DNA from: an uncultured Ignavibacteria bacterium
GTDB taxonomy: Bacteria > Bacteroidota > Ignavibacteria > UBA10030 > UBA6906
NCBI GenBank assembly: GCA_963780165.1
Contig: CAWABB010000001.1
Location: 1,816,556 to 1,880,555, forward strand
Length of the DNA stretch: 64,000 bases
Reading direction: 5' to 3'
Position 1 is the first letter of the stretch, and every line of letters begins with the position of its first letter. The notes beneath the pieces are model-generated. The model was not told the origin of the DNA. It made no database searches and saw only the letters and a program-made list of their open reading frames with translations. Below are positions 3,188-41,825 of the stretch, piece by piece. The position numbers were made by a program, and so were the translations under genes.

Positions 3188-3242
3188 GCGGACGGGCAGA
3201 CATTATGTAAACAAATAAACTAAGAACGCGCGCCAGAGTCAA

Positions 3243-3284: not shown

Positions 3285-3315
3285 CCTGGTGCCAATGTTT
3301 CAGACCCTGACACGG

Positions 3316-3753
3316 TCAGTTGTTCTTCGCCCCCTGATTCACCCACTCGGTGATGATGCCGATGTCCCCGTCCGACAATGGCTTGATCGGCTCCTTCTTC
3401 CGCTTCTTGCGGGGATCAAAGGGCATCCGGTCGCCGAACGGCGGATTCTCCAGAAGCTTCTGCACGAAGACGCTCTCCGATGCCTTCCCCGGCTTAACCA
3501 AATCTCCGTGTTTCCCGCCTTTCATCAGCAGATCATACGAGTCGAGCGACAGCTCGCTCGGATTAAACTGCTCCTCCGCATGGCACGGCATGCAGTTCCT
3601 GCTGATGATCGGGACGATGTCTTGCGAGAATGATACGGGCGGGCGGACCTTCGGAGTATCCACTCTTTCCACGCCCTTCTCCTGCGCCCGCGCAGCAACC
3701 GCCCAGCCCACCACGAGCAGCGCCAACACACACCAACGATGACGTTCTCTCAA
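3316..3753 (-). CDS. Periplasmic monohaem c-type cytochrome, PSCyt1-like domain.
   Basis: It has a signal peptide (MRERHRWCVLALLVVGWAVAARA) and a single CXXCH motif (CMPCH). The C-terminus shows the pattern ...GG.HGDLVKPG...S.....L....FGDRMPF...LSDGDIGIITEWVNQGA, which resembles the Planctomycete-type cytochrome c (PSCyt1) domain. It is a paralogue of the C-terminus of the 4979..5683 gene. Confidence 0.7.
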   Translation of the reverse strand: MRERHRWCVLALLVVGWAVAARAQEKGVERVDTPKVRPPVSFSQDIVPIISRNCMPCHAEEQFNPSELSLDSYDLLMKGGKHGDLVKPGKASESVFVQKLLENPPFGDRMPFDPRKKRKKEPIKPLSDGDIGIITEWVNQGAKNN

Positions 3754-3764
3754 CGCGCCCTCCC

Positions 3765-22043: not shown

Positions 22044-22050
22044 GCGTTCC

Positions 22051-22227
22051 TTACGATAGATGATGATTCGAGTCCCGCGGCGCGGGATTCGGCTCGTCAA
22101 ACAACATGCGTATAGATGGCGTCACGCGGTCATCGTACTGCCCCGACCGGACCGCCCAGAGGAACGCCAGGAGAAATCCTCCCGCGAGCATCAGGCTGGC
22201 TCCGATCATGACCGCGATGACGGACAT
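22051..22227 (-). CDS. ccoS: cbb3 oxidase maturation protein CcoS/FixS.
   Basis: 58 aa (MSVIAVMIGASLMLAGGFLLAFLWAVRSGQYDDRVTPSIRMLFDE). It is absent from the ORF track because it is under 60 aa. It lies between ccoI and ccoNO. Confidence 0.75.
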   Translation of the reverse strand: MSVIAVMIGASLMLAGGFLLAFLWAVRSGQYDDRVTPSIRMLFDEPNPAPRDSNHHLS

Positions 22228-25675: not shown

Positions 25676-26101
25676 TCACGACGGGAGCGTGAGGTGGCCG
25701 AGCTGGAGGAGCGCACTCAGATTGTCCCACTCGACCCAGACCTCGGCAATGCGTCCGTCCTTCAGCCGGAACATGGCGAGGAAGTTCGCCTCGATGCGAC
25801 GACCGGAGGCAGGGAACGGCCCCATGGGTCCCTTCTGTGTTCCGGTGAACTGGAGTGCGGCGGCGACCCGGTCCTCGTCGGCAACGAGATAGAGAATCTT
25901 CTGGTGCGCGTCGGGGAAGGTCATCGACTCGTTTTTGAGGAACTCTACGAGTTGCCTGCGTCCGCGCAGTTCAGGTTGTCCGTACGTGCGGCTGCGGCGC
26001 ACGACGTCGTCCGCGACGAGGGCGTCGAGCGTCGCCCATTCCTGCCCGCTGATGGCCTGGACGAACGCGGTGACCGTGGCCTTGTTGTTTTCTATGCTCA
26101 T
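25676..26101 (-). CDS. SnoaL-like / NTF2-fold protein (ester or polyketide cyclase-like).
   Basis: 141 aa with a pattern typical of SnoaL_2 domains (KATVTAFVQAI...DDVV......EFL...). Assigned by sequence pattern only. Confidence 0.6.
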   Translation of the reverse strand: MSIENNKATVTAFVQAISGQEWATLDALVADDVVRRSRTYGQPELRGRRQLVEFLKNESMTFPDAHQKILYLVADEDRVAAALQFTGTQKGPMGPFPASGRRIEANFLAMFRLKDGRIAEVWVEWDNLSALLQLGHLTLPS

Positions 26102-26255
26102 GGGGCGCTTTTCTGAAAACTACTGACCGCGGGGGGGATTGTCAATCACGCATTGGAGCCCGCCTGCGTGGACACCGTAAGCCCGTTCGGATGTCACTGC
26201 ACTTCAGGCGGGATCTCGGTATTCTCAAAAGTCAGGGGCAAGCAAACCAACACGA

Positions 26256-26330
26256 CGGAACGTAGCGCAGGCCCGGTGGCGCACCTGCATGGGGTTCAGG
26301 GGGTCATGGGTTCAAATTCCACCGTTCCGA
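26256..26330 (+). tRNA. Divergent, possibly pseudo, tRNA-Pro(GGG)-like gene.
   Basis: Cloverleaf with anticodon loop AUGGGGU. Relative to the 41248..41321 copy it has a C-U mismatch at 31-39, an A-C mismatch at 49-65, a G-U at 53-61 and a longer D-loop. Confidence 0.5.
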
Positions 26331-26727
26331 CTGGATTTCACCTACCTGTTGACAGCATTGTGGACACCTTTCGCCTGAAAGGCAACGACCATAGCACACC
26401 ACCCAGTCTGACCTCACCAAACGCCCCACTCAGCTTTTGTTGAATTGCCATGGGAAAGGCTGTGACTTGACATTCCCTCCTGTCCTCGGTAGCTTGGTGA
26501 AACCATTCCACTGATCGTGGATGGGTGTTGCTGCACAACTGCGGCTCACTGTTCTTGTGGTACAGGATGTTCCTCCTCGGTTCGCATCCAGCTCTCCCGG
26601 TCACACGTGAGTGTGCTCGCCCGGATTTTGTGCGGACCTGCAACTTCCAACCCCTGCGGCCCCTCCACCCGACATCCAACCGTCTCCGTTTCAATTTCTC
26701 AACCCTCCTAATCTTGAGGAGCACGTA

Positions 26728-29328
26728 ATGGAATCACGCCATACGTTCGCCCTTCTGTTCTTGCTCGTCCTCCCATTGGCCGCAGCCACCGCTCAGGAGG
26801 TGGATGATTATCGGATACTCAATATCACCCAGACTACCTCCTCCCCGACACAGCTGGCTATTGACCGGGGTCGACTCATCTGGCGCGACACCGACCCGAA
26901 CTCGGGCAAGTACTTTCTCAAGTACTCTTCGGGTGCTGATGTTATGGTGCTCGATTCCAACCTCCACGCAGTGTCTGCGGCCATAAGCGGCGACCACGTA
27001 GTGTGGACCACTCACCTGGAGAACGTGAAGGCATTTGACATTCGCTCGTGGACAACCGTTCCGATCGGTGTGTCGTACAACCCCGATTTCAGGCAGCCTG
27101 TCTGCGCGTCAGGAGACTTCGCCGCGTACGCAACGCGGAAACCGGGGACCGGTACGAATATCCTCCTGCACTGCTTCTCTTCAGGAGTCGACACGTCACT
27201 GAGCGCAGGGGTGTGGAATACTGCCCCGAGCGTCCACCACGGACAAGTTGCCTGGGTTGCCTCTGACGCAGAATTCGAGCTGGCTTCGTCGAGCATCGTC
27301 TTCTTCGATGGCCAGCGAACACGGACTATCTCCGGAACGACGGGTCTCCAACCTCGGGCCCCGATAATGAGAGACGCACAGGTCGTATGGGTGGAATCGG
27401 GCCCTCCCTCATGGCGTGTGCGGCTCTTTACGGAGGATTCCGTCATTACCCTCCTTGAACAAGGAGTCGGATCCGACGTGTGCACGGGGTACGACGCCAG
27501 CAATGGTATCGGCGTGGCGGCACTGCGAGACACGATCACGAGCCGCGGAAGGATCGAAATCTTCTCCGCCGAGACGGGAACCAGACAGACGATTCCCGAT
27601 TCCAACGGAGTCTGGAGCGTACACATCGATAACGGATTAATCGTCTGGCAATCGGGGAGCGGGCCGCGCAAGCGGTTGAGGACCCATGCATACCCCGGCG
27701 GACTCTTCGAGGAGATCGGTCTCGCCGAGAATCCGGTCGTGGATGATGGTCGGATTGCCTGGACCCTGGGCGATGCCGTCAGCCTGTATGTGCCGGTCAC
27801 CTACACGCGCATGACCTCGGACGGTGTGAACGGGTGGGAGCAGACGAAGTTCAAGACGATCGATAGCAGCGCGATCGTTTGGGGGAACGCGGCCGGCAAC
27901 ACGACTTCCTATCGGCTGTTCTACGACAACGCGGGCACTACCACACAACTGACCGACTCCTTGCTGCCGCGCGATCTGCTCATGCTGAATGACGGCTATC
28001 TCGTCTGGCGATCGAACTTCGACTCTCTCCATTATTACGATGGTGTTCACGCGCCCGTGAAGTTCCTGGACACCATTCAGGCTGAAAATCTGTACGTGGC
28101 CGGGGGTTCGATCGGATTCTTCGGCCCCAGAACAACGAACGGAGAGAGTATCAAGCGAGGCTGGCTCTATCGGATTGCCTCAGGGAGCCTGATCCAGTTG
28201 ACTTCCGGTGACGCTGAATCCGGCAATGTGCTCTGCTATGGGGCGACGGCGTGCTGGCGTGATCTGAACACAGAACGTATGATGTTCCACGACGGAGCCA
28301 CTACCGCCACGATCAGCGATTCATCAGTCACTGAACACTACAGCTACAGGAACGGCGTGATCGTGTGGTCGGAGCGCCGAAATGGAATTCAGCAGATCAT
28401 GATGTACGATATCGCAGCCGCGGCAAAGACCCAGGTCACCAACTCTAGTGCGTCGATGCTCTATCCGATCACCGATGGGTCTCATATCGTCTGGTACGAG
28501 AATGCAGAGTACCCGTTCCCCGCCGTGAATCCAGTGATGTGGTACTATGACGTTGCCACGAGTGAATCGCGACGAGTTGCGCGCACATCATACAACCAAC
28601 TGATGTGGAACTGGATGACAGACGGTACCATCGCATGGACCCAGGACAAGAATGTTCTCGTGTGCGACGGGAGGGTCGTCACGCAGCTGACAAGCGATGA
28701 TTTTTACGAGAACGCTCCGGTCTATCTGGACCGTGGATTGTATGTGTGGCGGCGCGCAGGCGATATCTTTCGCGGGAAGCTTCGCGCCCACGCCGCATTC
28801 GATGCAGCAAATATTGCCGGCGACGTCCCGCTCACTGTAGCGTTCACCAATCGATCCTGGGAGGGATGCCGGAGCTATCTCTGGAAGTTTGGGGATGGCA
28901 CCTCGAGTACAGCAATAGATCCGGTTCACACCTATGTCGCTCCCGGGAGCTTCACGGTGACGTTGACGGTCACAGGCCCAACGGGAACGGCGAGTGAGAA
29001 GAAGGTACAGTTGGTGAGAGCATTATCCTCCACGGCCATTGCGGCAGACGATTTGCAGCATCCAGAACGCACGGAGCTCTTGCCGAATTACCCGAACCCA
29101 TTTAATCCGACCACGGAGATTTCCTATCAGATTGCGGATGCGGCAATCGTGACGCTCAAGATCTACGACGTCCTCGGGAGAGAGGTGGCGACGCTTGTGA
29201 ACGAGGCACAATCCCCGGGAACTCACCGTGCGCCATGGGACGGATCGCAGCACGCGAGCGGAATCTACTACTACACCATGAAGGCAAATGCATTTCTCGC
29301 CACGCGCGCGATGATTCTCATGAAGTGA
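26728..29328 (+). CDS. T9SS-secreted protein with W-rich repeats, a PKD domain and a Por C-terminal sorting domain.
   Basis: Signal peptide. Repeated ...G.[IV]VW... units. PKD domain (WKFGDGTSS...HTY..PGSFTVTLTVTG). C-terminal LPNYPNPFNPTTEISYQI...VYDVLGREVATLV CTD. GAGGA ribosome-binding site before the ATG at 26728. Confidence 0.8.
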   Translation: MESRHTFALLFLLVLPLAAATAQEVDDYRILNITQTTSSPTQLAIDRGRLIWRDTDPNSGKYFLKYSSGADVMVLDSNLHAVSAAISGDHVVWTTHLENVKAFDIRSWTTVPIGVSYNPDFRQPVCASGDFAAYATRKPGTGTNILLHCFSSGVDTSLSAGVWNTAPSVHHGQVAWVASDAEFELASSSIVFFDGQRTRTISGTTGLQPRAPIMRDAQVVWVESGPPSWRVRLFTEDSVITLLEQGVGSDVCTGYDASNGIGVAALRDTITSRGRIEIFSAETGTRQTIPDSNGVWSVHIDNGLIVWQSGSGPRKRLRTHAYPGGLFEEIGLAENPVVDDGRIAWTLGDAVSLYVPVTYTRMTSDGVNGWEQTKFKTIDSSAIVWGNAAGNTTSYRLFYDNAGTTTQLTDSLLPRDLLMLNDGYLVWRSNFDSLHYYDGVHAPVKFLDTIQAENLYVAGGSIGFFGPRTTNGESIKRGWLYRIASGSLIQLTSGDAESGNVLCYGATACWRDLNTERMMFHDGATTATISDSSVTEHYSYRNGVIVWSERRNGIQQIMMYDIAAAAKTQVTNSSASMLYPITDGSHIVWYENAEYPFPAVNPVMWYYDVATSESRRVARTSYNQLMWNWMTDGTIAWTQDKNVLVCDGRVVTQLTSDDFYENAPVYLDRGLYVWRRAGDIFRGKLRAHAAFDAANIAGDVPLTVAFTNRSWEGCRSYLWKFGDGTSSTAIDPVHTYVAPGSFTVTLTVTGPTGTASEKKVQLVRALSSTAIAADDLQHPERTELLPNYPNPFNPTTEISYQIADAAIVTLKIYDVLGREVATLVNEAQSPGTHRAPWDGSQHASGIYYYTMKANAFLATRAMILMK

Positions 29329-29340
29329 CCGGAGGTGGGT

Positions 29341-32175
29341 ATGAGGAACGTGAAACGCGTGGTGTTGACTGCCAGTCTGCTCATTTCGGGTCTCGCCATG
29401 TCCACGGCCCAGACTGCGTACGAGGCGTGGGTCCGGCAGTATCCCGATGTCGACACCAGCGATCACTCGGTGGAGGATATGGTTGTGGACAGCGTCGGCA
29501 ATGTGTATGTGACGGGTTACGGTCGCCTGCCCGGGGAATCAGACTACGGGCTTCTCACCAAGAAGATCAATCCCTACGGCCTCACGGTCTGGGAGGCGCG
29601 CTATGCGACCCACTTCAGGGGATACCCCGGCACTACTGATACGGGGCCCGTCATCCGCACCGATGGCATGGGGAATGTCTATGTAGGGGGTACTGGCTTT
29701 GGAGCGACGACATTTGAAGATTTTGTGACGATCAAATACAATTCGCGAGGCGAACAACAATGGGTCGCCAGGTACAACGGACCGGGTGACACGAGCGACG
29801 TTCTCATGGGGCTGGTTCTTGGTCCCTCAGGGGAGGTGGTAGTGTTCGGATGGACACAAGACGAGCAGAGGGAGTTGATGGGCGCAGTGGTCAAATACGC
29901 TTCCAACGGTGTTCAGGAATGGAGCGCTGTCGATACAATCTTCGCTCCAGGCGCGGGGGCGATCGACCGGCTCGGGAATATCTACATCAGCGCGCCATTC
30001 GGCCGGGTCAAGAATCTCAAGTACTCTTCGGATGGTACACTTCAATGGAAACGGTCCTTCAACGTCTCCGGGACCGCCTTCCCACCGTCATCTCTGGCCG
30101 TTGACGAAACGGGGAGCGTCTATGTCGCGGGGTGGTCCGAGAATATTCAGACTGGTGACGACTATACATGGTCGATCAAGTACAATAGTGCCGGTGTGCA
30201 ACAATGGAGTAAGGATGATCCATTTGACGGCGGGAGTGTCCACATTGTTCTTGATTCTACCCTTGTGTATCTGAGCGCGGGGTGGTCCCTCAAGTGCCTC
30301 ACCAGAAATGGCGGCACGGTGTGGTCTGTGGCGTGCTATCCTGACAGCATCTGGAACATCCTTGCCCTCACGATGACCAAGTCCCGGGATATCGTGGTTG
30401 CAGATGTTGCCACCCCCGGGGGTCTTATTCCGACGGCATCGTACTCCCGGTTCGGTGCAAAGCAATGGGCACGCAGGACGGTCATCCCGGATCCGGCGTA
30501 CAGGTATGGTCAGACCGTATGCGCCTTCGATGAATCCGGGTACGCGTACCTGTCGTTTAACAATCGATACACAGACTTGCCTCCGTTCATCGCAAAGATC
30601 GATAGTCTCGGGCGCCATGTATGGTCGGAACCGACCTCCATTCCGGGGCTTTCGTTTCCGATGGCGTCCGCTTCCGATGCCAACGGAAATCTGTTTGTGG
30701 CCGGGTACACCTACAACCCGGAGACGCTGACCGACTGGGTCACCCTCAAATACGACTCAGCCGGCATGCCGGTCTGGGCGGCACGTTACAATGGACCGTC
30801 GGACTTGAGGGACAATCCCCGGGCTATGGCTGTTGATGCATCGGGAAATGTCTACGTCACAGGTCCGATGGAGGTGGACAGTGCGGACTTCGACTATGTG
30901 ACCATCAAATACAGTCCGTCAGGAGAACGGCAATGGGTGGCCCGATATGGTGAACCCTTCCCGTGGCGCGACATCCCCCGTGCGATGGCCGTCGATTCGT
31001 TCGGATATGTCTACGTCACAGGTGAAAGCTATGAAGTGACGGAACGAGACTTCGTTACCGTCAAGTACACACCGCTTGGGTTGCAGCAGTGGGCAGCTCG
31101 ATTCAGTGCTTCTAGCGGAGGGTCTGACATCCCGGTGACGATCGCAGTGGACGCCGCCCGAAACGTCTATGTGACTGGTACCAGCGATAGCACCGGGACC
31201 GGCCAGGATCTTGCCACGGTCAAGTACGATCAGTTCGGCCAGTTCCAATGGGCACGACGCTACAACGGTCCAGCGAACCGCAACGACAAACCTTCGTCGC
31301 TTCACATGGACCCATCGGGAAACATTCTGGTGAGTGGGGTGAGCGAGGGCGTCGCAACCCAACAAGATATTGTCACCATCAAGTACACTCCCCAGGGCCT
31401 TCAACAGTGGGCTGTCCGATATGACGATAGCGTTCACTCGTTCGATATCGGGACCGCCATGGGCATCGATCCCGAGGGGAATGTATATGTAACGGGTTCC
31501 TCAACGGGAGGGGGAAACGCAGAAGACTATCTCACCATAAAATATGACACGAATGGCAATACGATGTGGGAGGTGACGTACGACGGGGATGCACATGGGA
31601 GAGATGTTCCAACTCTCCTCGCGGTGGATGATGAAGGGAGCGCGTATGTCACAGGCCAGAGTTACAACCCCGTGGGGGGGAACGAGATCGTCACGGTGAA
31701 ATACAGCAGTGATGGGAGTGAGATCTGGCGAATGCGGAGATCGGCTAATCCCACATCCTACCAGAACACGGTTGGATTGGGGCTTGACCAGGGCTCGGGT
31801 GTCTATGTGACGTTGGTACGATCCAACACCGACGCGGGGTCTTCCTGGACCGCGATTAAGTATGGCCAGACTCCCATCGTGGGCGTCAGCCAGGAGGGGC
31901 CTTCACGATCACGGTCATTTGAGCTCGATCAGAACTATCCAAATCCATTCAATCCAAGCACGACGATAGAGTACACCCTGCCACACTCCGGCTTTGTCAC
32001 GCTCAAAGTGTACAACACTCTGGGCCAAGAGCTTGCCACGCTTGTATCAGGGGAAAAGGTGGCAGGCAAGGCTAGCGCCACGTGGAGTGCGAGTGGGTTT
32101 CCGAGCGGCGTGTACTTCTATCGCGTGACCGCAGGCGAGTATGTGGAAACGAAGAAGATGCTTCTGATGAAGTAG
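29341..32175 (+). CDS. T9SS-secreted SBBP beta-propeller-repeat protein.
   Basis: Signal peptide. About 12 repeats of D.[SA]GN[VI]YVTG...D[YF]VT[IV]KY...G...W...Y (SBBP repeat). C-terminal NYPNPFNPSTTIEYTLP...KVYNTLGQELATLV CTD. Confidence 0.85.
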   Translation: MRNVKRVVLTASLLISGLAMSTAQTAYEAWVRQYPDVDTSDHSVEDMVVDSVGNVYVTGYGRLPGESDYGLLTKKINPYGLTVWEARYATHFRGYPGTTDTGPVIRTDGMGNVYVGGTGFGATTFEDFVTIKYNSRGEQQWVARYNGPGDTSDVLMGLVLGPSGEVVVFGWTQDEQRELMGAVVKYASNGVQEWSAVDTIFAPGAGAIDRLGNIYISAPFGRVKNLKYSSDGTLQWKRSFNVSGTAFPPSSLAVDETGSVYVAGWSENIQTGDDYTWSIKYNSAGVQQWSKDDPFDGGSVHIVLDSTLVYLSAGWSLKCLTRNGGTVWSVACYPDSIWNILALTMTKSRDIVVADVATPGGLIPTASYSRFGAKQWARRTVIPDPAYRYGQTVCAFDESGYAYLSFNNRYTDLPPFIAKIDSLGRHVWSEPTSIPGLSFPMASASDANGNLFVAGYTYNPETLTDWVTLKYDSAGMPVWAARYNGPSDLRDNPRAMAVDASGNVYVTGPMEVDSADFDYVTIKYSPSGERQWVARYGEPFPWRDIPRAMAVDSFGYVYVTGESYEVTERDFVTVKYTPLGLQQWAARFSASSGGSDIPVTIAVDAARNVYVTGTSDSTGTGQDLATVKYDQFGQFQWARRYNGPANRNDKPSSLHMDPSGNILVSGVSEGVATQQDIVTIKYTPQGLQQWAVRYDDSVHSFDIGTAMGIDPEGNVYVTGSSTGGGNAEDYLTIKYDTNGNTMWEVTYDGDAHGRDVPTLLAVDDEGSAYVTGQSYNPVGGNEIVTVKYSSDGSEIWRMRRSANPTSYQNTVGLGLDQGSGVYVTLVRSNTDAGSSWTAIKYGQTPIVGVSQEGPSRSRSFELDQNYPNPFNPSTTIEYTLPHSGFVTLKVYNTLGQELATLVSGEKVAGKASATWSASGFPSGVYFYRVTAGEYVETKKMLLMK

Positions 32176-32547
32176 TCAGCACCCATCCGGACAAAACACT
32201 GGACACCGATCGCTCCCGTACCCAAAGGTGCAATTGTGTTTTGGTGCAGGAGGGTGTGCTATGTCCCGCTACCACGCATACCCGATATCAAACCTGAGCG
32301 CGGGCGCCCATCCGTCGAACTTCCCGATGCCATCCGTCGGTTTCATTCTTGTTCTCTCCCTGCATCTAGCTCCCGTACGTTGAGAGGGCCCGCGTGTTGG
32401 AGGGACGCCGGCCTTCAGACTCCTTAATACACATACGAAATGCCAGACCTGGCTTCCCGCGGAGGGATTCTGAGATCCTCCCTGACGTTGACTATCAGGC
32501 ATGCCGGATGTAGATTGGCCCACAGCTCACAAGCCACCATTCCACAC

Positions 32548-35458
32548 ATGCCCATCCGCCTCCTCAAAATCGTCATCCTGGTCGCTCTGGCGTCTTCTGA
32601 GGCGTTCCCCCAGTCTTTTCCCTTCACGACCTACACGACCACGGACGGTCTCGCCCAATCTGCCGTCTCCTGCTTCTTTCAGGATTCCCGGGGTCACATG
32701 TGGTTCGGGACGTGGGGCGGAATTAGCCGGTACGATGGACGAACGTTCTGGAGCTACAGGAACAGCGCATTCCACGTCACGAGCATCTGCGAGGACGACA
32801 GGGATACGCTCTGGATCGGGACGACGACGGGATTGGCCCTGCTCGCATTCGGCGACTCCACAGTCCACTGGATGAAAACCTGGGACGGCTCATTGCCTTC
32901 TGATTACATCCTGACACTTCTCAAGGATGATGACGGGAATATGTGGGTCGGCACCGACAGGGGCCTCGTCGTCTTCACGCCCTCAGGCAGAAGAGTTTCG
33001 TTCGGCACAAAGCAGGGACTTCAGGACGAGTATATTCCCGTCCTGCGAAAAGACAGCACGGGCGCCATTCTCATCGGGTCCGCCGGAGGCATCCTGCAAT
33101 GTTCATTGAAGAACGACGAACTCGTTGACGTGCGAGAGATCCTCACAGGGAACCCCCGCTGCCCAGATGATCGAACTGCGCAACGGAGACATTCTTGCGG
33201 GATCGGCTCGAGATCGAACCGTCATCCGATACCATGACGGTGTATGGACGTCGGTATTCACCTGTGAACCCCTCGGCCCATCGGTGCAGGTGAGAAGCCT
33301 CGGCGAAGATGAACAGGGAAATCTCTGGATTGGAACAACGGATGGTCTGGTGGTGGTCGAAGCAGGGCATGCGGTCCGCCTTCCCAGGGATCAACGACTG
33401 CCCAACCAGTACATCGGCGCGATCTTCAGAGACCGGGAAGATCTCTTGTGGTTCGGGACCGAGGGCGGAGCGTTCAAGCTCGTGAGCACGCCGTTTCGCA
33501 GCTACAACTATTCCACAGGCTTGCGCAGTGACCACGTCATAGGGATCTTCCTGGACGGAGAGAGAAACTGCTGGCTGGGCACCTATAACGGGGCGGCGGT
33601 GTTCGAGCCCGGAGGGCGGACCACATCCTTCGGACTCAACGACGGATTGCCGCATCTCGCCGTGCACTCATTCGCTCAGGGTCTGCACGGGAGCGTCTGG
33701 ATCGGGACGTGGAACGGGCTTGTTGTCCATGAGAGGGGGAAGCTGAAGCCCGGTTCGATCGGTGCACTCCGCGACGTGCCGGTGATCCGACTTCTTCCCG
33801 ATCGGCAGGGGACTCTGTGGGGTGCCAGTCGCCGGAAGATCGTGAACCTCACCCCGGCAGGAAAGGTCTTGTTGACGCTCGATGCAGACGAGGGAATCCC
33901 GGATGCGGATGTCTCTGCGGTTTTCATCGATGCGGATAACACTCTCTGGTTCGGGACAGATTCACGGGGCGGCGGATTCTACCGAGACGGCAAGATCGTC
34001 CTCCTCGGAGAGCCGGAAGGGCTTCCTCACCAGTGGGTCATGTCGATAAGCCAGGACAGGCATGGCACGATCTGGTTTGCCACGCAGCGTGGGGCCGTCT
34101 TCTGGAGCGGGCATCGGTTCGAGCCGATGAAGACAATGGAGGAGGATCTTCGCAACGGCATCGTCACGTTCGTGGTGCGGGACAGCCTCCGGAATATGTG
34201 GTTCGGCACACAGCGTGGGATCTATGAATGGGATGATTCCGTGCTCGCACACCTCGGGACCGACGACGGCCTCGTGGCGGACCCAACGAGATGCGGGTAT
34301 GTTGACACCGAAGGGAACCTCTGGATCGGGACCGTCGGCGGCGTATCACGCCTTGAAATGAGGACCTTTCGGAAGAAGCAGGATCCTCCCCCCGTCTACA
34401 TCGAGGGCCTGGCTCCGGACGGGCAACCGCACCCGAGCCTTCGAACATCCTTCTCCTACAGCGAAAATACTCTGACGGCGCACTTCAACTCGCTGAGCTT
34501 CCGGGACGAACGGCGTACCGTGTTCCAGTGGATGCTGGGGGGCTTTGATGAAACCTGGCAGGCGCCGCACACGGATCGGTATGTCCGCTACACCCACTTA
34601 CCGTGGGGAACGTATGAGCTCCTCGTTCGCGCGCGCAACGGGCGCACGCCCTGGTCAGACCCCGCGCGCCTGACGTTTGTCATTCACCCGCCGTTCTGGG
34701 GTACCTGGTGGTTCGTGGCACTTTCTGTCGTGGCCGTCGCCGGAGTGCTACTGTCGATCCATTCGCGCCGCGTCAAGAGTCTTGAGAAAGAGGCGCTCGC
34801 AGAGCAGACATTTTCGCGCAGGCTCCTGGACCTGCAGGAACACGAGCGCAAACGGCTCGCCGGCGAGCTTCACGACAGTCTCGTGCAAAACCTCATTGTC
34901 GCCAAGAACTGGTCGTTGCTGAGCATCAAGAACGCCGGCGACCCCGGACGAGTTGTCAAGGAACTCACCAACATTTCCGATGCGCTCACCGGAGCAATCC
35001 ATGAAGTCAGAGAGATCGCGCACAACCTCAGGCCGTATCAGCTGGACAGGCTGGGCCTGACACAGGCTCTTCGTTCGCTGGCGGCGGACACGAGCGCATC
35101 CTCCACGACCGCGTTCACCGCTGACATCGATCACATCGACTCGCTGCTAACGCCGGACTCGAGCACGCTCGTCTACCGCATCGTGCAGGAATCCGTCAAT
35201 AATATCCTTACGCACTCGGCCGCGTCGGAGGCGTTTATGACCGTGAAGCGAACCTCTTGGGGGATTGACATCACCGTCCGTGACGATGGTCGTGGATTCC
35301 CCACGGGTCAGTCAACGCCACCGCAGACCTACGGCTTCGGCCTCAGCGGAATCGATCAGCGCGTCCGCATGTTGAGCGGGACATGGACGATCGACTCGAC
35401 GATCGGCACCGGCACGACCATCCATGTCAGCATCCCTGTCCGGACGGCAAAGCCATGA
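32548..35458 (+). pseudogene. Hybrid-type sensor kinase (Reg_prop beta-propeller repeats + Y_Y_Y + TM + HisKA_3 + HATPase), interrupted by a frameshift at a C5 run (33152-33156).
   Basis: Two overlapping track ORFs (32440..33237 and 33125..35458) belong to one architecture. Removing one C from AACCCCCGCT restores a continuous reading frame (...EILTGNPAAQMIELRNGDILAGS...). The NarL-type kinase core is LHDSLVQNL...HATPase. This may be a sequencing artefact. Confidence 0.7.
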
Positions 35459-36108
35459 CCTCTCCCATCACGGTGGTTATCGCGGATGATCACCCCGTCT
35501 TTCGCAGGGGGCTCCGCCAGTCCATCGAGGAAAATGCCTCGTTTTCGATCGTGGGTGAAGCCAGCACCGGAGCGGAAGCCCTCAGGCTGGTCGAAGAACA
35601 TATGCCGGATATCGCCGTACTGGATATCGATATGCCTGAGCTGCGAGGACTACAGGTAGCCAGGGCAATTCAGGACAAGGAGCTGTTCGTCGGGGTCATT
35701 ATCCTCACCATTTACAGGGAAGAGGATATGTTCAATGAAGCGATGGATTCGGGTGTGCGCGGGTACGTGATGAAGGAGACTGCTGTGATCGATCTGCTGG
35801 AGGCGATGAAGGCTGTGGCGATGGGAGAGTACTTCTTCAGCCCCTCGCTGGCCGGCCACCTGGTAGGCAGGAGCCAGCGGGTCCGGCACCTCCTTGCGCA
35901 GAAGCCGAGTCTCGCCGACCTGACCCCGGCGGAGCGACGCATCCTGAAACTTATCGCGCTCAACAAGACGAGCAAAAACATTGCCGACGATCTCGGCATC
36001 AGCTACCGCACCGTTGAAACCCACCGCACGAATATTGCCACGAAACTCAACATTCACGGCAGCCACAGTCTGCTGAAATTCGCTCTCGAGAACAAGTCCT
36101 CCCTGTAG
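35455..36108 (+). CDS. NarL/LuxR-family response regulator.
   Basis: REC domain (VVIADDHPVFRRGL...LDIDMP) plus a LuxR HTH (LTPAERRILKLIALNKTSKNIADDLGISYRTVETHR). ATGA overlap with the kinase stop. Confidence 0.9.
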   Translation: MTSPITVVIADDHPVFRRGLRQSIEENASFSIVGEASTGAEALRLVEEHMPDIAVLDIDMPELRGLQVARAIQDKELFVGVIILTIYREEDMFNEAMDSGVRGYVMKETAVIDLLEAMKAVAMGEYFFSPSLAGHLVGRSQRVRHLLAQKPSLADLTPAERRILKLIALNKTSKNIADDLGISYRTVETHRTNIATKLNIHGSHSLLKFALENKSSL

Positions 36109-36356
36109 TCCCTGCAGTCTCTCGCGGGTTTCCACGCCATACGAGCATAGCGCAATCATGAGCGCAGTCTATACTACGTGTATCCCCGTAGCCCAAGTTA
36201 CGTGTCCGGCTCTATTCCCCCCACCCGCCAGTCTTCATATACTTGGGCCACGCCGTCATGTCGCACGAACCGCCAGGCACCCTCGATCTCGCTGAATTCC
36301 ACAGATGCAATCATTCGGTGCCGGGACAACGGGTCCATCGGGTTCGGATCGTTCTG

Positions 36357-38390
36357 ATGGCGCTCTTGCTCGTCGAGCCGGTGACCATGGCAGCCCAAGA
36401 AGTCTCGGCGGTCATGCATGGGGGCGGGGATTGGATATCGAGATTTGCACCGGTGCAGTTCACCCTGGAGGGAACCGTTCCCGCAGGCGGTCATCTCGGG
36501 CTCGTCATAGGACATACGGATGTGACCAACCTGTGCGCCATCCGAGAGGATACGTTGAGCTACACGCCCGGGGAGATTCCCCTGCCGGCTGGCGTGGTTG
36601 AAGTCTCACTCTATCTTGTCAGCGGCGATGGACCGTGGACTCTCGTTGGCACCTATTCGCTGAACGTCCTTGCCTCCACGGGGTTGGAAAAGGTCCTCGT
36701 CTCGCCATCGATCACTCTCTCCAGCCGGGGCCAGCTTGCGGCGGGCCAGTTCCCCGAAAGCACGGCGCCCGATCAGGGCAGGTTCCAGGAACTCAACGGG
36801 CAACTGGCGGTGAAGGCGGAAGCCGAACGGAGCGGCGTCGGTGTGGGCCTCGGCGTCAATATCGTTGGCGTATCCTTCAGGCAGGAAGCCCTCCGCTTCG
36901 CCGAACTGGGAGATGCCGCCCCCAAGATTGACCTTGCCACGTATCTGGTCGAAACTCGCACAGGCCGGACGGCAGTATCCGTAGGTCATATCAGTCACGG
37001 CAGGTCCCGACATCTTCTCAACGGTTTTTCGAGCCGGGGCATTTCAGCAAGCACTGCCATTGGGTCCTTCGTCGACCTTTCGGGAAGCATTCTGAACGGG
37101 ACGAGCATCGTAGGTTGGGACAATCCGTTCGGACTGAATAACTCATCGCACCGGGTGGTGAGCGGCACGCTGGGAGTGGAAATTCTCCCGGAAGACCCGG
37201 GCACGATTCGCGTCGAGGGATCCTATGTGTACGGGTCGCAGTTGCCATTGACCAACTTCAACCAGGGTCGGGTCAATGACGCCGAGGAGAGCAACGGTGG
37301 AACCGCGCGGCTCCTCCTTTCCGATGCGGGGAAACGCCTCTCCCTGGATGCGGGCTTCACAGTGGCGCGGTTCACCAACCCGCCCGACCCCCTCCTCTCG
37401 CAGGGGGTTGACATCGTTCCTGTCGAACCGACGACGCGTCAGGCACAGTATGTCGATGCCACATGGGAGGTCGTCCGGGATGCGACGCTGTTGGAGAACC
37501 TGCCTGCCCGGTTGAACGTCGCATTTCGTCACGAGCGCGTCGATCCGCTCTACCGGGCTGTCGGCTCAAGCACACAAGCAGATATTCTCCAGAACGCCTA
37601 TGAACTCCACGGCGGCGTCGGCCCCCTCCAGATGGATTTCATGCACCGGAGGGCGGAAGACAATCTCGCGGACATCGCATCCGTGTTGAAGAGCAAGACC
37701 CGGCAGACGACAGTCCACATCGCATTATCCCCCCTCGCGTCGGCGGAGTTGCTGCCACCCTGGCTGCCGGCATTTTCTTACGGTCTGCTGAGCACGCATC
37801 AGTTCGGTGTCAGCACGCCGACCAACAGCGAGTTCACCCCCGCACGCGTGCCCGACCAGTTGACCACCACACACTCGGCCGGCATCGAGTGGCAGGGAGG
37901 CGGTCTGCGGGTGGGATACCGCGGCACATTCACGATGCAGGACAACCGACAGCCCGGAAGGGAAAACACCGATATCGTTGGCCATACGAACGGGCTCAGC
38001 CTCTCCTTTTCTCCGGTCGCAGAGGTTTCAACAAGTCTCGACGGATCGCTCGAGTCCATCGAGAACACCGGGACCGGCATGATCCTTCGCACCGATCGGG
38101 CCGGATTCAATGTCCTGGCGGGCTTGTTCACGGGCGCGACCGCCTCGCTCAACGCGTCGCTCTCGGTGACAGAACCCGATGACGGCACAAGCGAACAGCG
38201 CCAGGCGTCGTTCACCCTTGAGACGTCGTACGCCTTCGATCTCTCTTCATTGTTCGTCTTCAGCTGGCGAGGTCAGATGTTCGTGCGGTACTCGTGGAGT
38301 GAGACCACGTCGCGGGACAATGTGTTCAATCTGGACTCGCAGACGCGGGCCTGGGTCGTGAACACAGGTTTGTCGATCAATCTGTTCTGA
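36357..38390 (+). CDS. Large outer-membrane beta-barrel protein, uncharacterized.
   Basis: Signal peptide, about 680 aa rich in alternating beta-strand patterns, and a C-terminal ...GLSINLF (terminal Phe, an OMP signature). The start is uncertain (36333-36357). Confidence 0.55.
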   Translation: MALLLVEPVTMAAQEVSAVMHGGGDWISRFAPVQFTLEGTVPAGGHLGLVIGHTDVTNLCAIREDTLSYTPGEIPLPAGVVEVSLYLVSGDGPWTLVGTYSLNVLASTGLEKVLVSPSITLSSRGQLAAGQFPESTAPDQGRFQELNGQLAVKAEAERSGVGVGLGVNIVGVSFRQEALRFAELGDAAPKIDLATYLVETRTGRTAVSVGHISHGRSRHLLNGFSSRGISASTAIGSFVDLSGSILNGTSIVGWDNPFGLNNSSHRVVSGTLGVEILPEDPGTIRVEGSYVYGSQLPLTNFNQGRVNDAEESNGGTARLLLSDAGKRLSLDAGFTVARFTNPPDPLLSQGVDIVPVEPTTRQAQYVDATWEVVRDATLLENLPARLNVAFRHERVDPLYRAVGSSTQADILQNAYELHGGVGPLQMDFMHRRAEDNLADIASVLKSKTRQTTVHIALSPLASAELLPPWLPAFSYGLLSTHQFGVSTPTNSEFTPARVPDQLTTTHSAGIEWQGGGLRVGYRGTFTMQDNRQPGRENTDIVGHTNGLSLSFSPVAEVSTSLDGSLESIENTGTGMILRTDRAGFNVLAGLFTGATASLNASLSVTEPDDGTSEQRQASFTLETSYAFDLSSLFVFSWRGQMFVRYSWSETTSRDNVFNLDSQTRAWVVNTGLSINLF

Positions 38391-39655
38391 TGCCATCCAT
38401 GAAGCCCCGGGCTATCAACCTGCTTCTGATGCTCGCCCTGATCGGGAGCAGCGCTAGCGCTCAGATCAAGGTCGATCCGCACTGGGTGAATGTGAACACG
38501 ACTGGCGCAACGACCGTGTTCCTTACCTTCGGAGGGGTGGTCGGGTACGTCCCCGGCGAATCAGTCTGGTGCGGGGAGATCACGAATGCCGCTCCGGATA
38601 TCGGGTCGAAGCCCGTGGCCGGGACGATCTTCGGCGTGTTGCCCGCGAGATTCAACCTCTCGACATCGAGCGGCACCACCGGGTTCACCGACATCATGTC
38701 CATTCCTCCTTCGGTCTCCAGACGGGCCTACCAGGCGGCGGCCGCCGGTGAGACCTCGACCTTCTTTTATGTTCGACGGTTCATCAGCACAACGGGCGGG
38801 CCGGACGAGTACGTTGCCGTGACGTGCGAGCTCGGCAGCGGCGGTGCGCGCACGCCGTTCGCGCTGACGAACGTGGAGCTGGCGTTCGAGAATCGTGACG
38901 TCGTCGCGTCGATCAACGAAGGCGATCCGTCCCCTCCACTTTTCGCGTCGATTTCATACAACGGCACCGGCCAGCTGCAGGGGCGATGGGAGATCGTCAG
39001 GCCGGGTGACGAGCTGCCGACAGAACTGGACCTCCTGACGCAAGCGACCCTCCCGATTGAGCAGCGGTCACAGCAGCGGCGGTATACAGAGTTGGAGCGT
39101 TTCAGCGTCTTCCTTCCCCCCACCGGAAGCTTCACCCTGCGAGGCCCCGACCCATCGAAACTCCCATCTAACGTCCGGGGGCTCTATATGATCCTTCTCC
39201 GGATCGAGTCTACTCCGGACATCGAGTCAACGTCGAATCTTGACGCTGTGGGTGCAGGCCCGGCGCCCGTGGATGCAGGGGGCACTGCAGGTTTCCCCAT
39301 CCCACCGCTCCGGTACTTTGTGGGAAAGACGCCCTCCCTGGGCGAGAATGCCGTCTCCCTTCTTGCGCCAAGAGACATGGCGGTCGCCACGCCGGAATCG
39401 CCTTTATCTTTCGCCTGGACGGACATCCCGAAGGGGTCGCTCTACCGAGTGGTCGTGATTGACCCCACGAACACTGTTGTGTTGACGGCATTGCTCCGAC
39501 CCGGGGTTGGAACATACAGTCTGCCGCCGTGGATCTGGACGAAGCAGGACGCAAAGAGCGTCTTCTGGAGTGTCGAAGCTCTCGACGAGAATGGTGATCT
39601 CCTGGTCAAAAGCGAGTGGCGAACGCTCGTGCGCGGGAGCGACGGACAGCCGTGA
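38390..39655 (+). CDS. Secreted hypothetical protein (421 aa).
   Basis: Signal peptide (LLLMLALIGSSASAQ), no recognizable domain. Its start overlaps the OMP stop. Confidence 0.5.
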   Translation: MPSMKPRAINLLLMLALIGSSASAQIKVDPHWVNVNTTGATTVFLTFGGVVGYVPGESVWCGEITNAAPDIGSKPVAGTIFGVLPARFNLSTSSGTTGFTDIMSIPPSVSRRAYQAAAAGETSTFFYVRRFISTTGGPDEYVAVTCELGSGGARTPFALTNVELAFENRDVVASINEGDPSPPLFASISYNGTGQLQGRWEIVRPGDELPTELDLLTQATLPIEQRSQQRRYTELERFSVFLPPTGSFTLRGPDPSKLPSNVRGLYMILLRIESTPDIESTSNLDAVGAGPAPVDAGGTAGFPIPPLRYFVGKTPSLGENAVSLLAPRDMAVATPESPLSFAWTDIPKGSLYRVVVIDPTNTVVLTALLRPGVGTYSLPPWIWTKQDAKSVFWSVEALDENGDLLVKSEWRTLVRGSDGQP

Positions 39656-39777
39656 TTCGCTCCCGACACATCTTTGGTGCGTGGACGGTGGCCAGGGGAC
39701 CTTGAAGATCGCCATCCCTGAAGGAATCGTTGGTTCAACAGCAGCATTTCATTCATCAACATCACGGAGCTACAACA

Positions 39778-40938
39778 ATGAGAACCGCAATGCGTTGGTT
39801 TGTGCTGGGCGTCCTGTTCGCCTCCATGGCGCAGGCCGCACTTGCCGGCACGGTCATCGGGAAGGTCGGCAGAACGTGCTTTCCCACGACCTACAGCCCT
39901 CCGGGGTTCAACCTCGACGTGTACGGAAACTGGATCGAGAATATCGACAGGGTCACGGCCCCGGCGGGGGTCACGGTGAGCATCGTTGCCAAGAGGAATG
40001 GGGCCCAGAATAACACGGGACCCTATGCGGGGAAGGGAGACGTCACCCTTCGCATCGGCACAAGCAATGCGACCCCTGGCGAGAAGACCATCAATTTGAT
40101 TAACGACCCCGACCTTGGCCTCGGTGGTGAAACGTTTTCATTCACCATCACCGTTCTGGCCGCACCAACGGTGACAAGCGTTGATGTGCCTTCGCCCGCG
40201 GAACCCTTCAATGAGATCGTGGTAACGCTTACGGGCACGGGACTGCAGGGAGCAGTCGACCCGGCAGTCGGAGCCATCGTGGTGGACAACCTCGTGCCGT
40301 TGATTACCCTGGGCGGGAATGCGACCGTGACCAGTGTCAGAGTGTTGAGCTCGTCGGCCACGTCGCTCCAGGCACGAATATTCTTCAGCGCGAAGATCCA
40401 GGACGTGACCGTCGCTCTGACATTCAAGAGCAACACAACGTGCAGCCCCCTAGGCAAGGATATTTCGCCCTCGGGATTCACAAAGCAGGTGCGCACGAAA
40501 TGCACGAACGTCAAGAACTACGTCAGGTCGATCACCTTTCCGACCGGGAGCACGATTGACAAGAACAGCACCGCGACCATCAATGTGAATCTGCTCTTTC
40601 GCGCGCCATCGACCACGTTGACCACCGGGATCACGGTGGGTAAGACGGGGTCCACCTCGACAACCAGCAATAGGCGGGTATTCTTCAAGTTCCAGCCTGA
40701 TAATGCGATCAGTCGCCCTGACGGGACGGCCTTTCCTAAAGACAGTCAAGGCTTAAGCTTCGTGGACGCCAATCCAGGAGACGACCTGGTCCCAATTGGG
40801 ATCAAAGTCGTGAATTGCGGGGGCGGGCAACCCGGCACGTCGAATGCGGTGTCAATTCAGACCTGGATGCAGAACCCGCTCACGAACCTTCCACCGGAGT
40901 TCATCGAGCAGCGGTTCTTTGCTCGTTGCACCCAGTAA
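39778..40938 (+). CDS. Secreted hypothetical protein with Ig-like repeats (about 385 aa).
   Basis: Signal peptide (MRWFVLGVLFASMAQAALAG). T/S/V-rich beta-sandwich-like segments. Confidence 0.5.
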   Translation: MRTAMRWFVLGVLFASMAQAALAGTVIGKVGRTCFPTTYSPPGFNLDVYGNWIENIDRVTAPAGVTVSIVAKRNGAQNNTGPYAGKGDVTLRIGTSNATPGEKTINLINDPDLGLGGETFSFTITVLAAPTVTSVDVPSPAEPFNEIVVTLTGTGLQGAVDPAVGAIVVDNLVPLITLGGNATVTSVRVLSSSATSLQARIFFSAKIQDVTVALTFKSNTTCSPLGKDISPSGFTKQVRTKCTNVKNYVRSITFPTGSTIDKNSTATINVNLLFRAPSTTLTTGITVGKTGSTSTTSNRRVFFKFQPDNAISRPDGTAFPKDSQGLSFVDANPGDDLVPIGIKVVNCGGGQPGTSNAVSIQTWMQNPLTNLPPEFIEQRFFARCTQ

Positions 40939-41247
40939 CGCAGGACATCTTCAGGCATGGCCGGGCGCTCGCGAGCGCCCGGCCATGTTCCTATCGAGCA
41001 CGTCTCCACCCAGCAGCACAGTCCCCCCACCTCAGATTTCCTCTCCCTGTCCTTCCGTTGAGGGTTGACGAGAAGGACCTTATTCAAGGAGGCGATTGGG
41101 TTTCTTATCCAGGTTGTGTTTGGCACGAACCGCCCTTGACCGCGGGGGCATTGTCAATCGGGGCGCCGGGTTGCGCCAGCGTCCGCGCTGGATGCCGGTG
41201 CCGTTCTCGTTGCATTTCAGGGAAGATCTGGGTATTTTGGATCGATA

Positions 41248-41321
41248 CGGAACGTAGCGCAGCCCGGTAGCGCACCTGAATGGGGTTCAGGGGGTCGTGG
41301 GTTCAAATCCCACCGTTCCGA
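41248..41321 (+). tRNA. tRNA-Pro (anticodon GGG).
   Basis: Perfect cloverleaf: acceptor CGGAACG/CGTTCCG, D-arm GCGC-AGCCCGGTA-GCGC, anticodon arm CCTGA-AUGGGGU-TCAGG, T-arm GTGGG-TTCAAAT-CCCAC, discriminator A. Confidence 0.85.
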
Positions 41322-41360
41322 CTGATTCCACAGATGGTTCTTTGCACGTTGCCTTCCCGG

Positions 41361-41396
41361 CCCCGTGAGTCAACTACTCACGGGGCCTTTTCATTG
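41361..41396 (+). terminator. Rho-independent terminator after tRNA-Pro.
   Basis: CCCCGTGAG-tcaacta-CTCACGGGG forms a 9-bp stem, followed by CCTTTTCATT. Confidence 0.75.
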
Positions 41397-41825
41397 GTCT
41401 CGATATCGCGTATGCTTCTCCATCGTGAGATGTCCCGGGAAGTGAGGTAGACAGAGGACTTTGGCCGGCGCGTCCCTGCGACAGCGCACTACGGCATTCA
41501 TACCGTTCGTGCGACGGAGAATTTCCCCATCACCGGCATCCCCATCGCCCACTACCCATCCCTCCTGGTTGGGCTCGCATGTCTGAAGAGCGCCGCCGCT
41601 GTCGCACATGCCGAACCGGGATTCCTTAACTCAAAGCCTCGGACGCAATCCGGTGCGCCTGCAGGGAGATCATTGCAAGAAAACTCCATGATCAGTTCGT
41701 CGTTGACGTCATTCATGGGGGGCGGGCACATCCACGAACATGAACGCCAGCAGGGTGGCAAAATCAGAAGAATCTTGGTATCATAGCCTTCAATCTTCTG
41801 TCAGCCATCGCCTGGAAGGGGTTCA

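Follow-up and report, generated by a model that had tools for sequence, protein, structure and literature searches.

This study concerns a variable block bordered by two tRNA genes within a stretch of 64,000 nucleotides (hereafter, the window) from an uncultured Ignavibacteria bacterium (GenBank assembly GCA_963780165.1, contig CAWABB010000001.1). An ARAGORN search of the window returned two tRNA genes only, both of them tRNA-Pro(GGG) and at a distance of 14,991 bp, thereby recovering the pair that an earlier note on the same DNA had placed at the ends of the block. From left to right, the locus comprises a SnoaL-like gene, the upstream tRNA (tRNA1), two cargo genes of the type IX secretion system (T9SS), a sensor histidine kinase, a LuxR-type response regulator, a protein resembling outer-membrane proteins (OMP-like), two secreted proteins, the downstream tRNA (tRNA2), a remnant of fumC and a GHL10-family gene (Table 1). 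The regions upstream of tRNA1 and tRNA2 are referred to as up1 and up2, and their 3' flanks as dn1 and dn2. We consider it probable that a relative contributed the block, as a circular, permuted copy of its homologous locus that integrated through a single crossover inside the tRNA-Pro(GGG) gene. The evidence consists of the flank configurations of the two tRNAs, the unoccupied sites in close relatives, the discordant divergence of block and chromosome, and the private mutations of tRNA1 and of the element in front of it.

Table 1. Features of the tRNA-Pro(GGG) locus, in window coordinates (aa, amino acids; nt, nucleotides; ORF, open reading frame).
Feature	Position	Strand	Remarks
SnoaL-like gene	25676..26101	-	Pfam SnoaL, 2.5e-28; left core flank
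Resident box	26124..26147	-	TTGACA-17 nt-TAGTTT on the minus strand, 15 nt before the SnoaL ATG; putative SnoaL promoter
Promoter-like element of the left tRNA, apparently decayed	26197..26226	+	CTGCAC...TATTCT, against TTGCAT...TATTTT in all relatives; 3 private T>C changes
tRNA-Pro(GGG), copy 1	26256..26330	+	Resident upstream region; 5 private changes
dn1-type 3' flank	26331..26431	+	Acquired DNA probably begins here; sequence homologous to that 3' of the tRNA in L009 and L022, not in the closest relatives
T9SS cargo gene 1	26611..29328	+	PKD domain and type-A C-terminal sorting domain
T9SS cargo gene 2	29335..32175	+	SBBP beta-propeller repeats and sorting domain
Sensor histidine kinase	32440..35458	+	Reg_prop propeller, Y_Y_Y, HisKA_3, HATPase_c
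LuxR-type response regulator	35455..36108	+	217 aa
OMP-like protein	36243..38390	+	715-aa ORF, C-terminal ...INLF; no family match
Secreted protein, 421 aa	38390..39655	+	Signal peptide; no family match
Secreted protein, 386 aa	39778..40938	+	Signal peptide, then tandem Ig-like beta-sandwich domains (pLDDT 87.8)
Novel joint	41082..41136		Between homology to the spacer of the L006 386-aa gene and homology to the L022 SnoaL-tRNA spacer
Box copy	41137..41159		Only the -35 side of the donor's putative SnoaL promoter; probable edge of the imported tRNA locus
Intact promoter-like element	41210..41240	+	TTGCATTTCAGGGAAGATCTGGGTATTTT; donor-type spacer (up2, L022/L015), short leader
tRNA-Pro(GGG), copy 2	41248..41321	+	Canonical; identical to the tRNA of 11 relatives
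Resident 3' flank (dn2)	41322..41426	+	Terminator at 41359-41387; 95% identical to L025 and 92% to L024 (single tRNA there)
fumC remnant	41427..41749	+	Class II fumarase; lacks the start-codon segment and 1113 bp
GHL10-family gene	41826..42956	+	Right core flank

The two tRNA genes and their upstream elements

Transfer RNAs are built on four fully paired stems and carry a conserved A21 and a conserved G53-C61 pair. The upstream copy departs from this architecture. It differs from the downstream copy by an additional G in the D loop and by the changes A21G, A31C, G49A and C61U, the last three of which produce C31.U39, A49.C65 and G53.U61. The first two of these combinations are flagged as non-standard pairs by Rfam, and none of the stem changes is compensated. 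In agreement with these data, the upstream copy obtains 36.7 bits in Rfam, above the gathering score of 29, as compared to 64.0 bits for the downstream copy. When folded alone, the minimum-energy structure of tRNA1 is not a cloverleaf (z -0.42), whereas that of tRNA2 is (z -2.08). Moreover, the tRNA2 sequence was found in 12 relatives, exactly in 11 of them and with one change in L009, and the five changes of tRNA1 are present in none; hence, five private changes in tRNA1 stand against none or one in its orthologues. These results substantiate the degeneracy that had been noticed from the sequence of the upstream copy. The terminator described after the downstream copy could also be confirmed, as a strong intrinsic terminator with a 12-bp stem and a T run.

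The rate at which these changes accumulate was estimated by counting private changes, that is, changes unique to one genome, in the window and in two comparators, L001 and L025. The tRNA shows 5 private changes in 75 positions in the window (copy 1) and none in either comparator, and the promoter-like element shows 3 in 28 in the window (that of copy 1), none in L001 and one in L025. In the neutral spacer, the counts are 8 in 86, 4 in 82 and 5 in 83 for the window, L001 and L025, respectively, and neighboring coding DNA is very similar in the three genomes (2.4%, 2.3% and 1.8%). The left tRNA and its promoter-like element appear to evolve like unconstrained DNA, in the window only, because their private-change rate equals that of the neutral spacer there. 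Of note, the three changes in the element fall at positions that are invariant in about 12 relatives. This pattern suggests that tRNA1 is a pseudogene in the making, which would have lost its function, and that tRNA2 is presumably the working gene and the copy that is expressed. The proposal that the two copies are differentially regulated tRNA loci does not agree with these rates. The degenerate tRNA1 sequence had no exact match in the JGI metagenomes.

The element in question, TTGCATNTC-N7-ATCTNGNTA, precedes tRNA-Pro(GGG) in 11 relatives, including L010, in which the tRNA is cut off at the contig end. The element was noted at 41210-41234 and 26197-26221 of the window and at 13079-13103 of L006, and it is also found 5' of the GHL10 gene in L005 and L006. 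Its fit to the sigma-70 consensus is poor, which may reflect the promoter type of this lineage.

A further similarity between the two upstream regions has a different explanation. The earlier note had described a nearly identical palindromic motif, TTGAC-N12-GTCAA, upstream of both tRNAs. We found that a box of the form TGACCGCGGGGG(1-3 nt)TTGTCAATC does have just two occurrences in the window (26124-26147 and 41137-41159), where none is expected. The palindrome itself is exact in the downstream box only. The upstream box reads cTGAC-N13-GTCAA, which the pattern does not match even with one mismatch, and its left half is CTGAC in the relatives as well. When one mismatch is allowed, TTGAC-N12-GTCAA has seven sites in the window, as compared to 1.4 expected from shuffles (7959, 9413, 18796, 30101, 31784, 41136 and 53717), and the box of the upstream tRNA is not among them.

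The distribution of the box follows the SnoaL gene and not the tRNA. SnoaL adjoins tRNA-Pro(GGG) in L001, L014-16, L021, L022 and L024-26, and the box occurs once in each of the nine loci in which SnoaL abuts the spacer, always beside the SnoaL start. Conversely, in L009, L011 and L023, intervening DNA separates SnoaL from the tRNA, and the upstream region of the tRNA has no box; despite this absence, these tRNAs retain the promoter-like element. Because the box tracks the SnoaL start and is missing where the two genes are separated, the shared box is neither a tRNA control site nor a regulatory palindrome. An operator or a generic tRNA promoter element was therefore rejected, the palindrome being also inexact upstream. 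The resident box is best read as a putative SnoaL promoter; a scan with the sigma-70 consensus did not call it. The center of this box (26130-26137) carries four clustered private changes of the window, which turn the GTTC(A/G)GGGCA of L001 and L025 into GCGGGGGGGA; this sequence resembles the imported copy, GCGGGGGCA, and L022. The segment may represent a short gene-conversion patch between the two boxes. It is because of these changes that the boxes were seen as nearly identical in the earlier note.

Relatives, flanking DNA and divergence

The nearest species representative, L001, is a metagenome-assembled genome (MAG) that shares 92-96% identity with the window to the left and to the right of the block and lacks positions 26331-41807. 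In this genome, a single canonical tRNA-Pro(GGG), preceded by up1, lies between SnoaL and GHL10 and is fused to the GHL10 upstream region. The breakpoint between the window and L001 falls exactly after tRNA position 73, and the same site is unoccupied in L025 and L024. In L025 (94.5% nucleotide identity), the arrangement is DUF2279-SnoaL-up1-tRNA-dn2, with the terminator in dn2 and the start of fumC thereafter, and the dn2 region is 95% identical to 41246-41473 of the window. L024 (89%) shows the same block-free arrangement, and L017 carries the 3' end of the tRNA, the same terminator, an intact fumC and GHL10. Furthermore, a 27-kb JGI contig (27,205 bp) codes for the closest GHL10 protein, which differs from that of the window by only 6 aa, and carries SnoaL and DUF2279. 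No member from this contig was found in the 90% clusters of cargo 1, the regulator or the 386-aa protein, which suggests, as judged from protein cluster membership only, that it is also without the block. On the other hand, the Logan assembly ERR12037368 has SnoaL beside cargo gene 1, with an identical gap of 626 nt. Since the block is absent from L001, L025, L024 and, as far as protein clusters indicate, the JGI contig, and present in the window and in the Logan assembly, these alignments indicate that it is variably present among very close relatives. The comparison with related genomes that had been suggested for this locus was thus informative, as the block is not syntenic in all of them.

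To type the flanks, we compared 115 nt of upstream and 100 nt of downstream sequence of each tRNA with the relatives. The sequence upstream of tRNA1 is closest to the window's own clade (L001, 89%; L025, 85%), and so is the sequence downstream of tRNA2 (L025, 95%; L024, 92%). In contrast, the two inner flanks group with diverged lineages: L009 (75%) and L022 (68%) for the sequence downstream of tRNA1, and L022 (85%) and L015 (80%) for the sequence upstream of tRNA2. The two upstream regions of the window are only 52% alike. The chromosome of L022 itself shows the donor-type order SnoaL-up2-tRNA-dn1. Both parental configurations and the recombinant one have thus been observed, namely the recipient type up1/dn2 in L025 and L024, the donor type up2/dn1 in L022, and up1/dn1...up2/dn2 in the window. 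Therefore, the locus displays the pattern of a single reciprocal crossover within the tRNA. A local tandem duplication of the tRNA locus was rejected because the spacers are so dissimilar and group with different lineages; the earlier suggestion of a duplication-mediated segment remains valid insofar as the tRNA was duplicated, as a product of the insertion. The reciprocal flanks in L025, L024, L022 and L017, together with the intact fumC beside dn2, also superseded two simpler readings of L001, that is, a simple insertion of 26331-41807 after the tRNA, suggested by L001 alone, and a pure deletion in L001, suggested by the collinearity of both window junctions with L006 and L009.

A more distant relative, represented by L009 and L006 on one 266-kb contig, reveals how the block is arranged elsewhere. 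There, the cbb3 oxidase genes, CcoI, DUF2279, SnoaL, DUF6958, tRNA-Pro(GGG) and dn1 are followed by transposase fragments, a 2137-aa T9SS cargo gene, a TonB receptor, a 360-aa cargo gene, the kinase, the regulator, genes of 710, 418 and 386 aa, fumC and GHL10. No second tRNA was found in this genome, including the interval between the 386-aa gene and fumC. Positions 31930-41081 of the window are collinear with this genome at approximately 88%. The homology to the L006 spacer located 3' of the 386-aa gene ends at about 41081-41125, and homology to the SnoaL-tRNA spacer of L022 begins at 41137. Consequently, the segment 41082-41136 joins the spacer of the 386-aa gene to the SnoaL-promoter box, which lie at opposite ends of the locus in L009 and L006. 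Because this joint links both ends, a circular (or tandemly duplicated) intermediate is implied.

The block and its surroundings also differ in their divergence from this same genome. Synonymous divergence (dS) between the window and L006/L009 ranges from 0.23 to 0.43 in six segments of the block (two of the kinase, the regulator, the OMP-like gene, p421 and p402), as compared to 0.65-1.01 in the left flank (ccoNO, ccoI, DUF2279 and SnoaL) and 1.07-1.88 in the right flank (six genes, from GHL10 to a deaminase). Block dS is thus 2-5 times lower than that of either flank. By comparison, the dS of the flanks against L001 is 0.13-0.32 (about 0.17). The history of the block differs from that of the flanks because its dS is far lower against the same genome, and these values indicate that the common ancestor of the block and the L006 block is far more recent than that of the surrounding chromosomes. 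Composition provided a mixed picture of the block. The genes that stand out in composition within the window are those of the two cargo proteins, with a G+C content at third codon positions (GC3) of 0.66-0.69 and a tetranucleotide distance of 19-22, as compared to 9-15 elsewhere, whereas the part from the kinase to the 386-aa gene resembles the background. The compositional check that had been proposed for the block therefore singles out the cargo genes only.

The 3' flank of this tRNA differs in almost every lineage directly after ...CCGA CTG. In the sister lineage L014, this tRNA-Pro(GGG) is directly followed on its 3' side by a tyrosine integrase gene (3212-4297), after which come genes for a 475-aa protein and a T9SS cargo protein. 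L015 and L021 likewise carry integrase-bearing islands at this tRNA. The L014 arrangement represents a classical island that uses the same hotspot. The window contains a single recombinase, a XerD-like tyrosine recombinase encoded on the minus strand between position 1 and about 900. Its gene extends beyond the window start, and the protein, with 27% identity to the L014 integrase, has no relation to the block. A candidate remnant of the tRNA 3' end at 41785-41807 was dropped, being homologous to the native GHL10 upstream region of L006.

Gene content of the block and its edges

The gene content reported for the block was largely confirmed. Both cargo genes carry the C-terminal sorting domain that defines type-A cargo of the T9SS, matching Por_Secre_tail in Pfam (4e-07 and 1.1e-08) and TIGR04183 (3.5e-09 and 2.4e-14). 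Gene callers place the start of cargo gene 1 at 26728, which yields a protein of 866 aa. In cargo gene 2, homology to L006 resumes at 31930, within the sorting domain; outside the sorting domains, both cargo genes are exclusive to the window. Across lineages, the T9SS cargo beside the tRNA or SnoaL is a 2137-aa giant, an RHS/YD-repeat protein, a PKD protein or an SBBP propeller (L009 2531-8944, L011 2182-7919, L014 192-893 and window 26611-32175), with only a C-terminal sorting domain of about 85 aa in common. This comparison suggests that the sorting domain stays constant while the cargo bodies attached to it are exchanged.

The propeller kinase was found as described, except that no match to a receiver domain could be detected, which leaves no ground for calling it a hybrid kinase. 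Its gene is split into ORFs of 265 and 777 aa by one additional nucleotide at 33146, outside a homopolymer, and a second indel is located at 35304. The L006 orthologue is intact (966 aa). The frameshift represents either a real inactivation or an assembly error. The LuxR regulator is present, and so is the OMP-like ORF, for which a length of 680 aa had been given; it follows the regulator in L006 and L007 too. Two secreted proteins complete the block. For the 386-aa protein, Foldseek returned generic Ig-domain matches only. Its family comprises 55 relatives without a Pfam or NCBIfam match, and its gene is always located after those of the kinase, the regulator and proteins of about 700 and 420 aa (L006, L007).

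The fumC remnant beside tRNA2 is specific to the window genome. It lacks about 65 nt including the start codon, as compared to L025, and 1113 bp from about codon 109 to the stop, as compared to L017. In L001, fumC is completely gone by a different deletion. Since the gene is intact in L017, L006 and L008 and differently deleted in the window and L001, it is being lost independently in sister lineages. To the left of SnoaL, the window codes for a fused CcoN-CcoO protein (cbb3 oxidase subunits I and II; 723 aa; 19929-22100, minus strand), and the same fusion exists in L009.

Origin of the block and known systems

Altogether, these observations are probably best explained if window 26331-41321 (14,991 bp) is horizontally acquired DNA that entered by one reciprocal crossover inside tRNA-Pro(GGG). 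The recipient chromosome would have had the order SnoaL, up1 as the resident spacer, tRNA-Pro, dn2 with the terminator, fumC and GHL10. The incoming circle would have been a permuted copy of the same neighborhood from a diverged relative, comprising a fragment of the SnoaL promoter (the box), the donor spacer up2, tRNA-Pro, the donor 3' flank dn1, the two T9SS cargo genes, the kinase, the LuxR regulator, the OMP-like protein, the two secreted proteins and the spacer after the last gene. A crossover within the identical tRNA sequence would yield up1-tRNA1-dn1-[block]-up2-tRNA2-dn2. One tRNA would be redundant after integration, and the left copy and its promoter-like element would decay unconstrained. 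The right copy would work with a donor promoter-like element, a canonical sequence and the resident terminator.

With regard to the recombination machinery, we favor a RecA-mediated Campbell-type integration anchored on the tRNA, because the block contains neither an integrase, nor a transposase, nor a tRNA fragment, and because the tRNA is the longest perfect identity available. The longest exact match between L025-type and L022/L015-type DNA is indeed the tRNA, with 79-82 bp, the next longest being 39-40 bp.

Several points weigh against this scenario. Neither a circular form nor a donor genome with both cargo 1 and cargo 2 was found, L022 departs from the window about 45 nt after the tRNA, and all of the comparison sequences are metagenome assemblies, many of them short. 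The loss of function of tRNA1 is deduced from its changes, and this copy still passes the Rfam threshold and ARAGORN; the promoter-like elements were not called by the sigma-70 consensus scan. In addition, 77 bp of homology is little for a RecA-dependent event. The crossover could instead be the work of a site-specific enzyme supplied in trans, since integrase-bearing islands occupy the same tRNA in L014, L015 and L021. Finally, the insertion could be older than the split between the window and L001, with later precise tRNA-tRNA excisions in L025, L024 and L001, because the dS of the block against L006 (about 0.33) exceeds that of the flanks between the window and L001 (about 0.17).

The classical alternative is an integrative island, for which a tyrosine integrase would have recombined an attP site overlapping tRNA-Pro with attB, the integrase gene being lost later. 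Variable DNA does begin exactly after ...CCGA CTG in every lineage, and a Phage_integrase gene lies immediately 3' of the same tRNA in three of them (L014, L015 and L021). Mobility genes can decay fast after integration, which would fit such a loss (PMC6917214). We still regard this alternative as unlikely. Searches of 26331-41321 with Pfam and NCBIfam, and by tblastn with the L014 integrase and the rve_3 and HTH_Tnp_1 fragments of L009, revealed no similarity to an integrase or transposase, and a search of the window for partial repeats of the tRNA 3' end with up to three mismatches returned only the two full genes. Moreover, the repeat is not a 16-20-bp att site (attachment site) but the full 74-nt gene plus CTG and about 110 nt of homeologous upstream spacer with the neighbor's partial promoter, and the cargo is the chromosomal neighborhood of relatives in a permuted order. 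The tRNA had no match in viral contigs, which argues against an integrative element and led us to reject a prophage origin. Thus, the suggestion of a tRNA-targeted acquired segment is supported by the absence of the block from relatives at 89-96% identity with collinear flanks and by its 2-5 times lower dS, but not in the form of a classical integrase island. A contrary polarity, with the block and both tRNAs being ancestral and L025, L024, L001 and the JGI strain each losing the block by recombination between the tRNAs, appears quite unlikely. Direct repeats recombine readily, the window sequence adjoining the L001 breakpoints on either side is collinear with that of L009 and L006, and L006/L009 has the cluster from the kinase to the 386-aa gene between SnoaL and fumC-GHL10, so that this position is old. 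Nevertheless, ancestry would require several independent losses instead of one gain, and leaves unexplained the low dS of the block against both flanks, the L022/L015-type spacer at tRNA2 with an own-clade spacer at tRNA1, and the lack of a tRNA between the 386-aa gene and fumC in L006.

If both tRNA-Pro(GGG) genes were functional and kept for dosage or differential regulation, with the palindrome as their common operator, one would expect what is in fact seen in part: both copies pass ARAGORN and the Rfam gathering score, and a similar box and promoter-like element precede each of them. This reading is nonetheless very improbable. All five differences are private to one copy and affect A21, 31-39, 49-65 and G53-C61 without any compensation, the promoter-like element of the same copy has three private changes at otherwise invariant positions, the rate of change is that of neutral spacer, and the box tracks SnoaL while the palindrome is not conserved. 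As for an assembly artefact, in which two strains would have been chimerically joined at the repeated tRNA, the source is a metagenome-derived contig of 2.47 Mb, and the related assemblies L005 and L010 are full of frameshifts. Such a chimera is barely credible here, as a switch of strains at the tRNA can produce neither the joint at 41082-41136 nor the private variants of tRNA1 and its promoter-like element, which were found in no other sequence. Besides, a separate Logan assembly has the same left junction with identical spacing, and no other genome shares the fumC remnant next to tRNA2.

Returning to the integration of a permuted circle at the tRNA, this locus would provide a clean natural example of a tRNA as an anchor for gene gain, with the empty site, the donor-type arrangement and the recombinant all recovered. 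It suggests that an integrase-free, homology-driven capture can mimic the signature of a classical island, in which a tRNA and direct repeats accompany a variably present segment. Such loci would be missed or mislabelled by island-finding software whose criteria include an integrase and a tRNA fragment. In this sense, an imported copy under a foreign promoter would have taken over from the native tRNA gene, which decays as fast as neutral DNA. The gain would also alter the secreted and surface repertoire by two T9SS cargo proteins, one OMP-like protein and two secreted proteins, one of which is modelled as tandem Ig-like domains; the accompanying sensor kinase appears to be already broken.

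A more tentative idea, which we consider possible but rather doubtful, is that whole variable loci move between species-level lineages of these uncultured Ignavibacteria-like bacteria without mobile-element machinery, as circles that use RecA at a tRNA. A tRNA-bearing chromosomal segment would loop out as a circle, for instance by collapse of a tandem duplication, reach a relative and integrate by RecA at the tRNA, and the imported tRNA with its foreign promoter would replace the resident gene. If general, this route would be an integrase-independent cause of tRNA genes being island hotspots and a means for the turnover of T9SS cargo and surface modules.

Comparison with known systems helps to place the locus. 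Circular DNA, such as a non-replicating plasmid with a cloned chromosomal fragment, can integrate by a single crossover, and this Campbell-type integration is reversible via the resulting repeats. Likewise, redundant tRNA copies are known to decay into tRNA pseudogenes. The locus resembles a Campbell-type event in its direct duplicate homology flanking the insert, its reciprocally exchanged outer flanks, its closure joint and the presence of the predicted excised configuration in L025 and L024. It is unlike such an event in being natural and between diverged lineages, with a tRNA gene of about 77 bp as the homology and with a circle that is deduced from the joint. The left copy shares with decaying tRNA pseudogenes the uncompensated stem mismatches, the loss of A21 and G53-C61, the lower covariance score and the mutated promoter-like element. 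In this case, unlike in those, it is the copy with the native upstream region that decays, and an imported promoter probably drives the surviving gene.

With the tRNA-associated additive islands of the Islander/tRNAcc type, the block shares its location on the 3' side of a tRNA, its strain-variable presence and its collinear core genes (PMC6917214), as well as direct tRNA repeats, surface and secretion cargo, and other islands at the same tRNA, some of them with integrases. The insert lies directly 3' of the tRNA as in a canonical integrase island; in contrast, it has no transposase, no att-sized repeat and no integrase at its edge, the repeat spanning the whole tRNA and about 110 nt of spacer. 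Its cargo is a permuted chromosomal locus and not a mobile element, and only two cargo genes are compositionally atypical. Similar to the "replacement" flexible islands (PMC6917214), the block is a homologous but divergent version of a variable locus of the relatives, in which the T9SS cargo differs per lineage. Those islands are exchanged by a double crossover in the core flanks without duplication of a tRNA, whereas the present locus has two tRNA copies and has kept both its resident spacer and its resident terminator. Altogether, the locus is a variant of the tRNA-associated genomic island, an ordinary genome change that is unusually well documented, and it refines current ideas for a poorly known lineage rather than overturning them.

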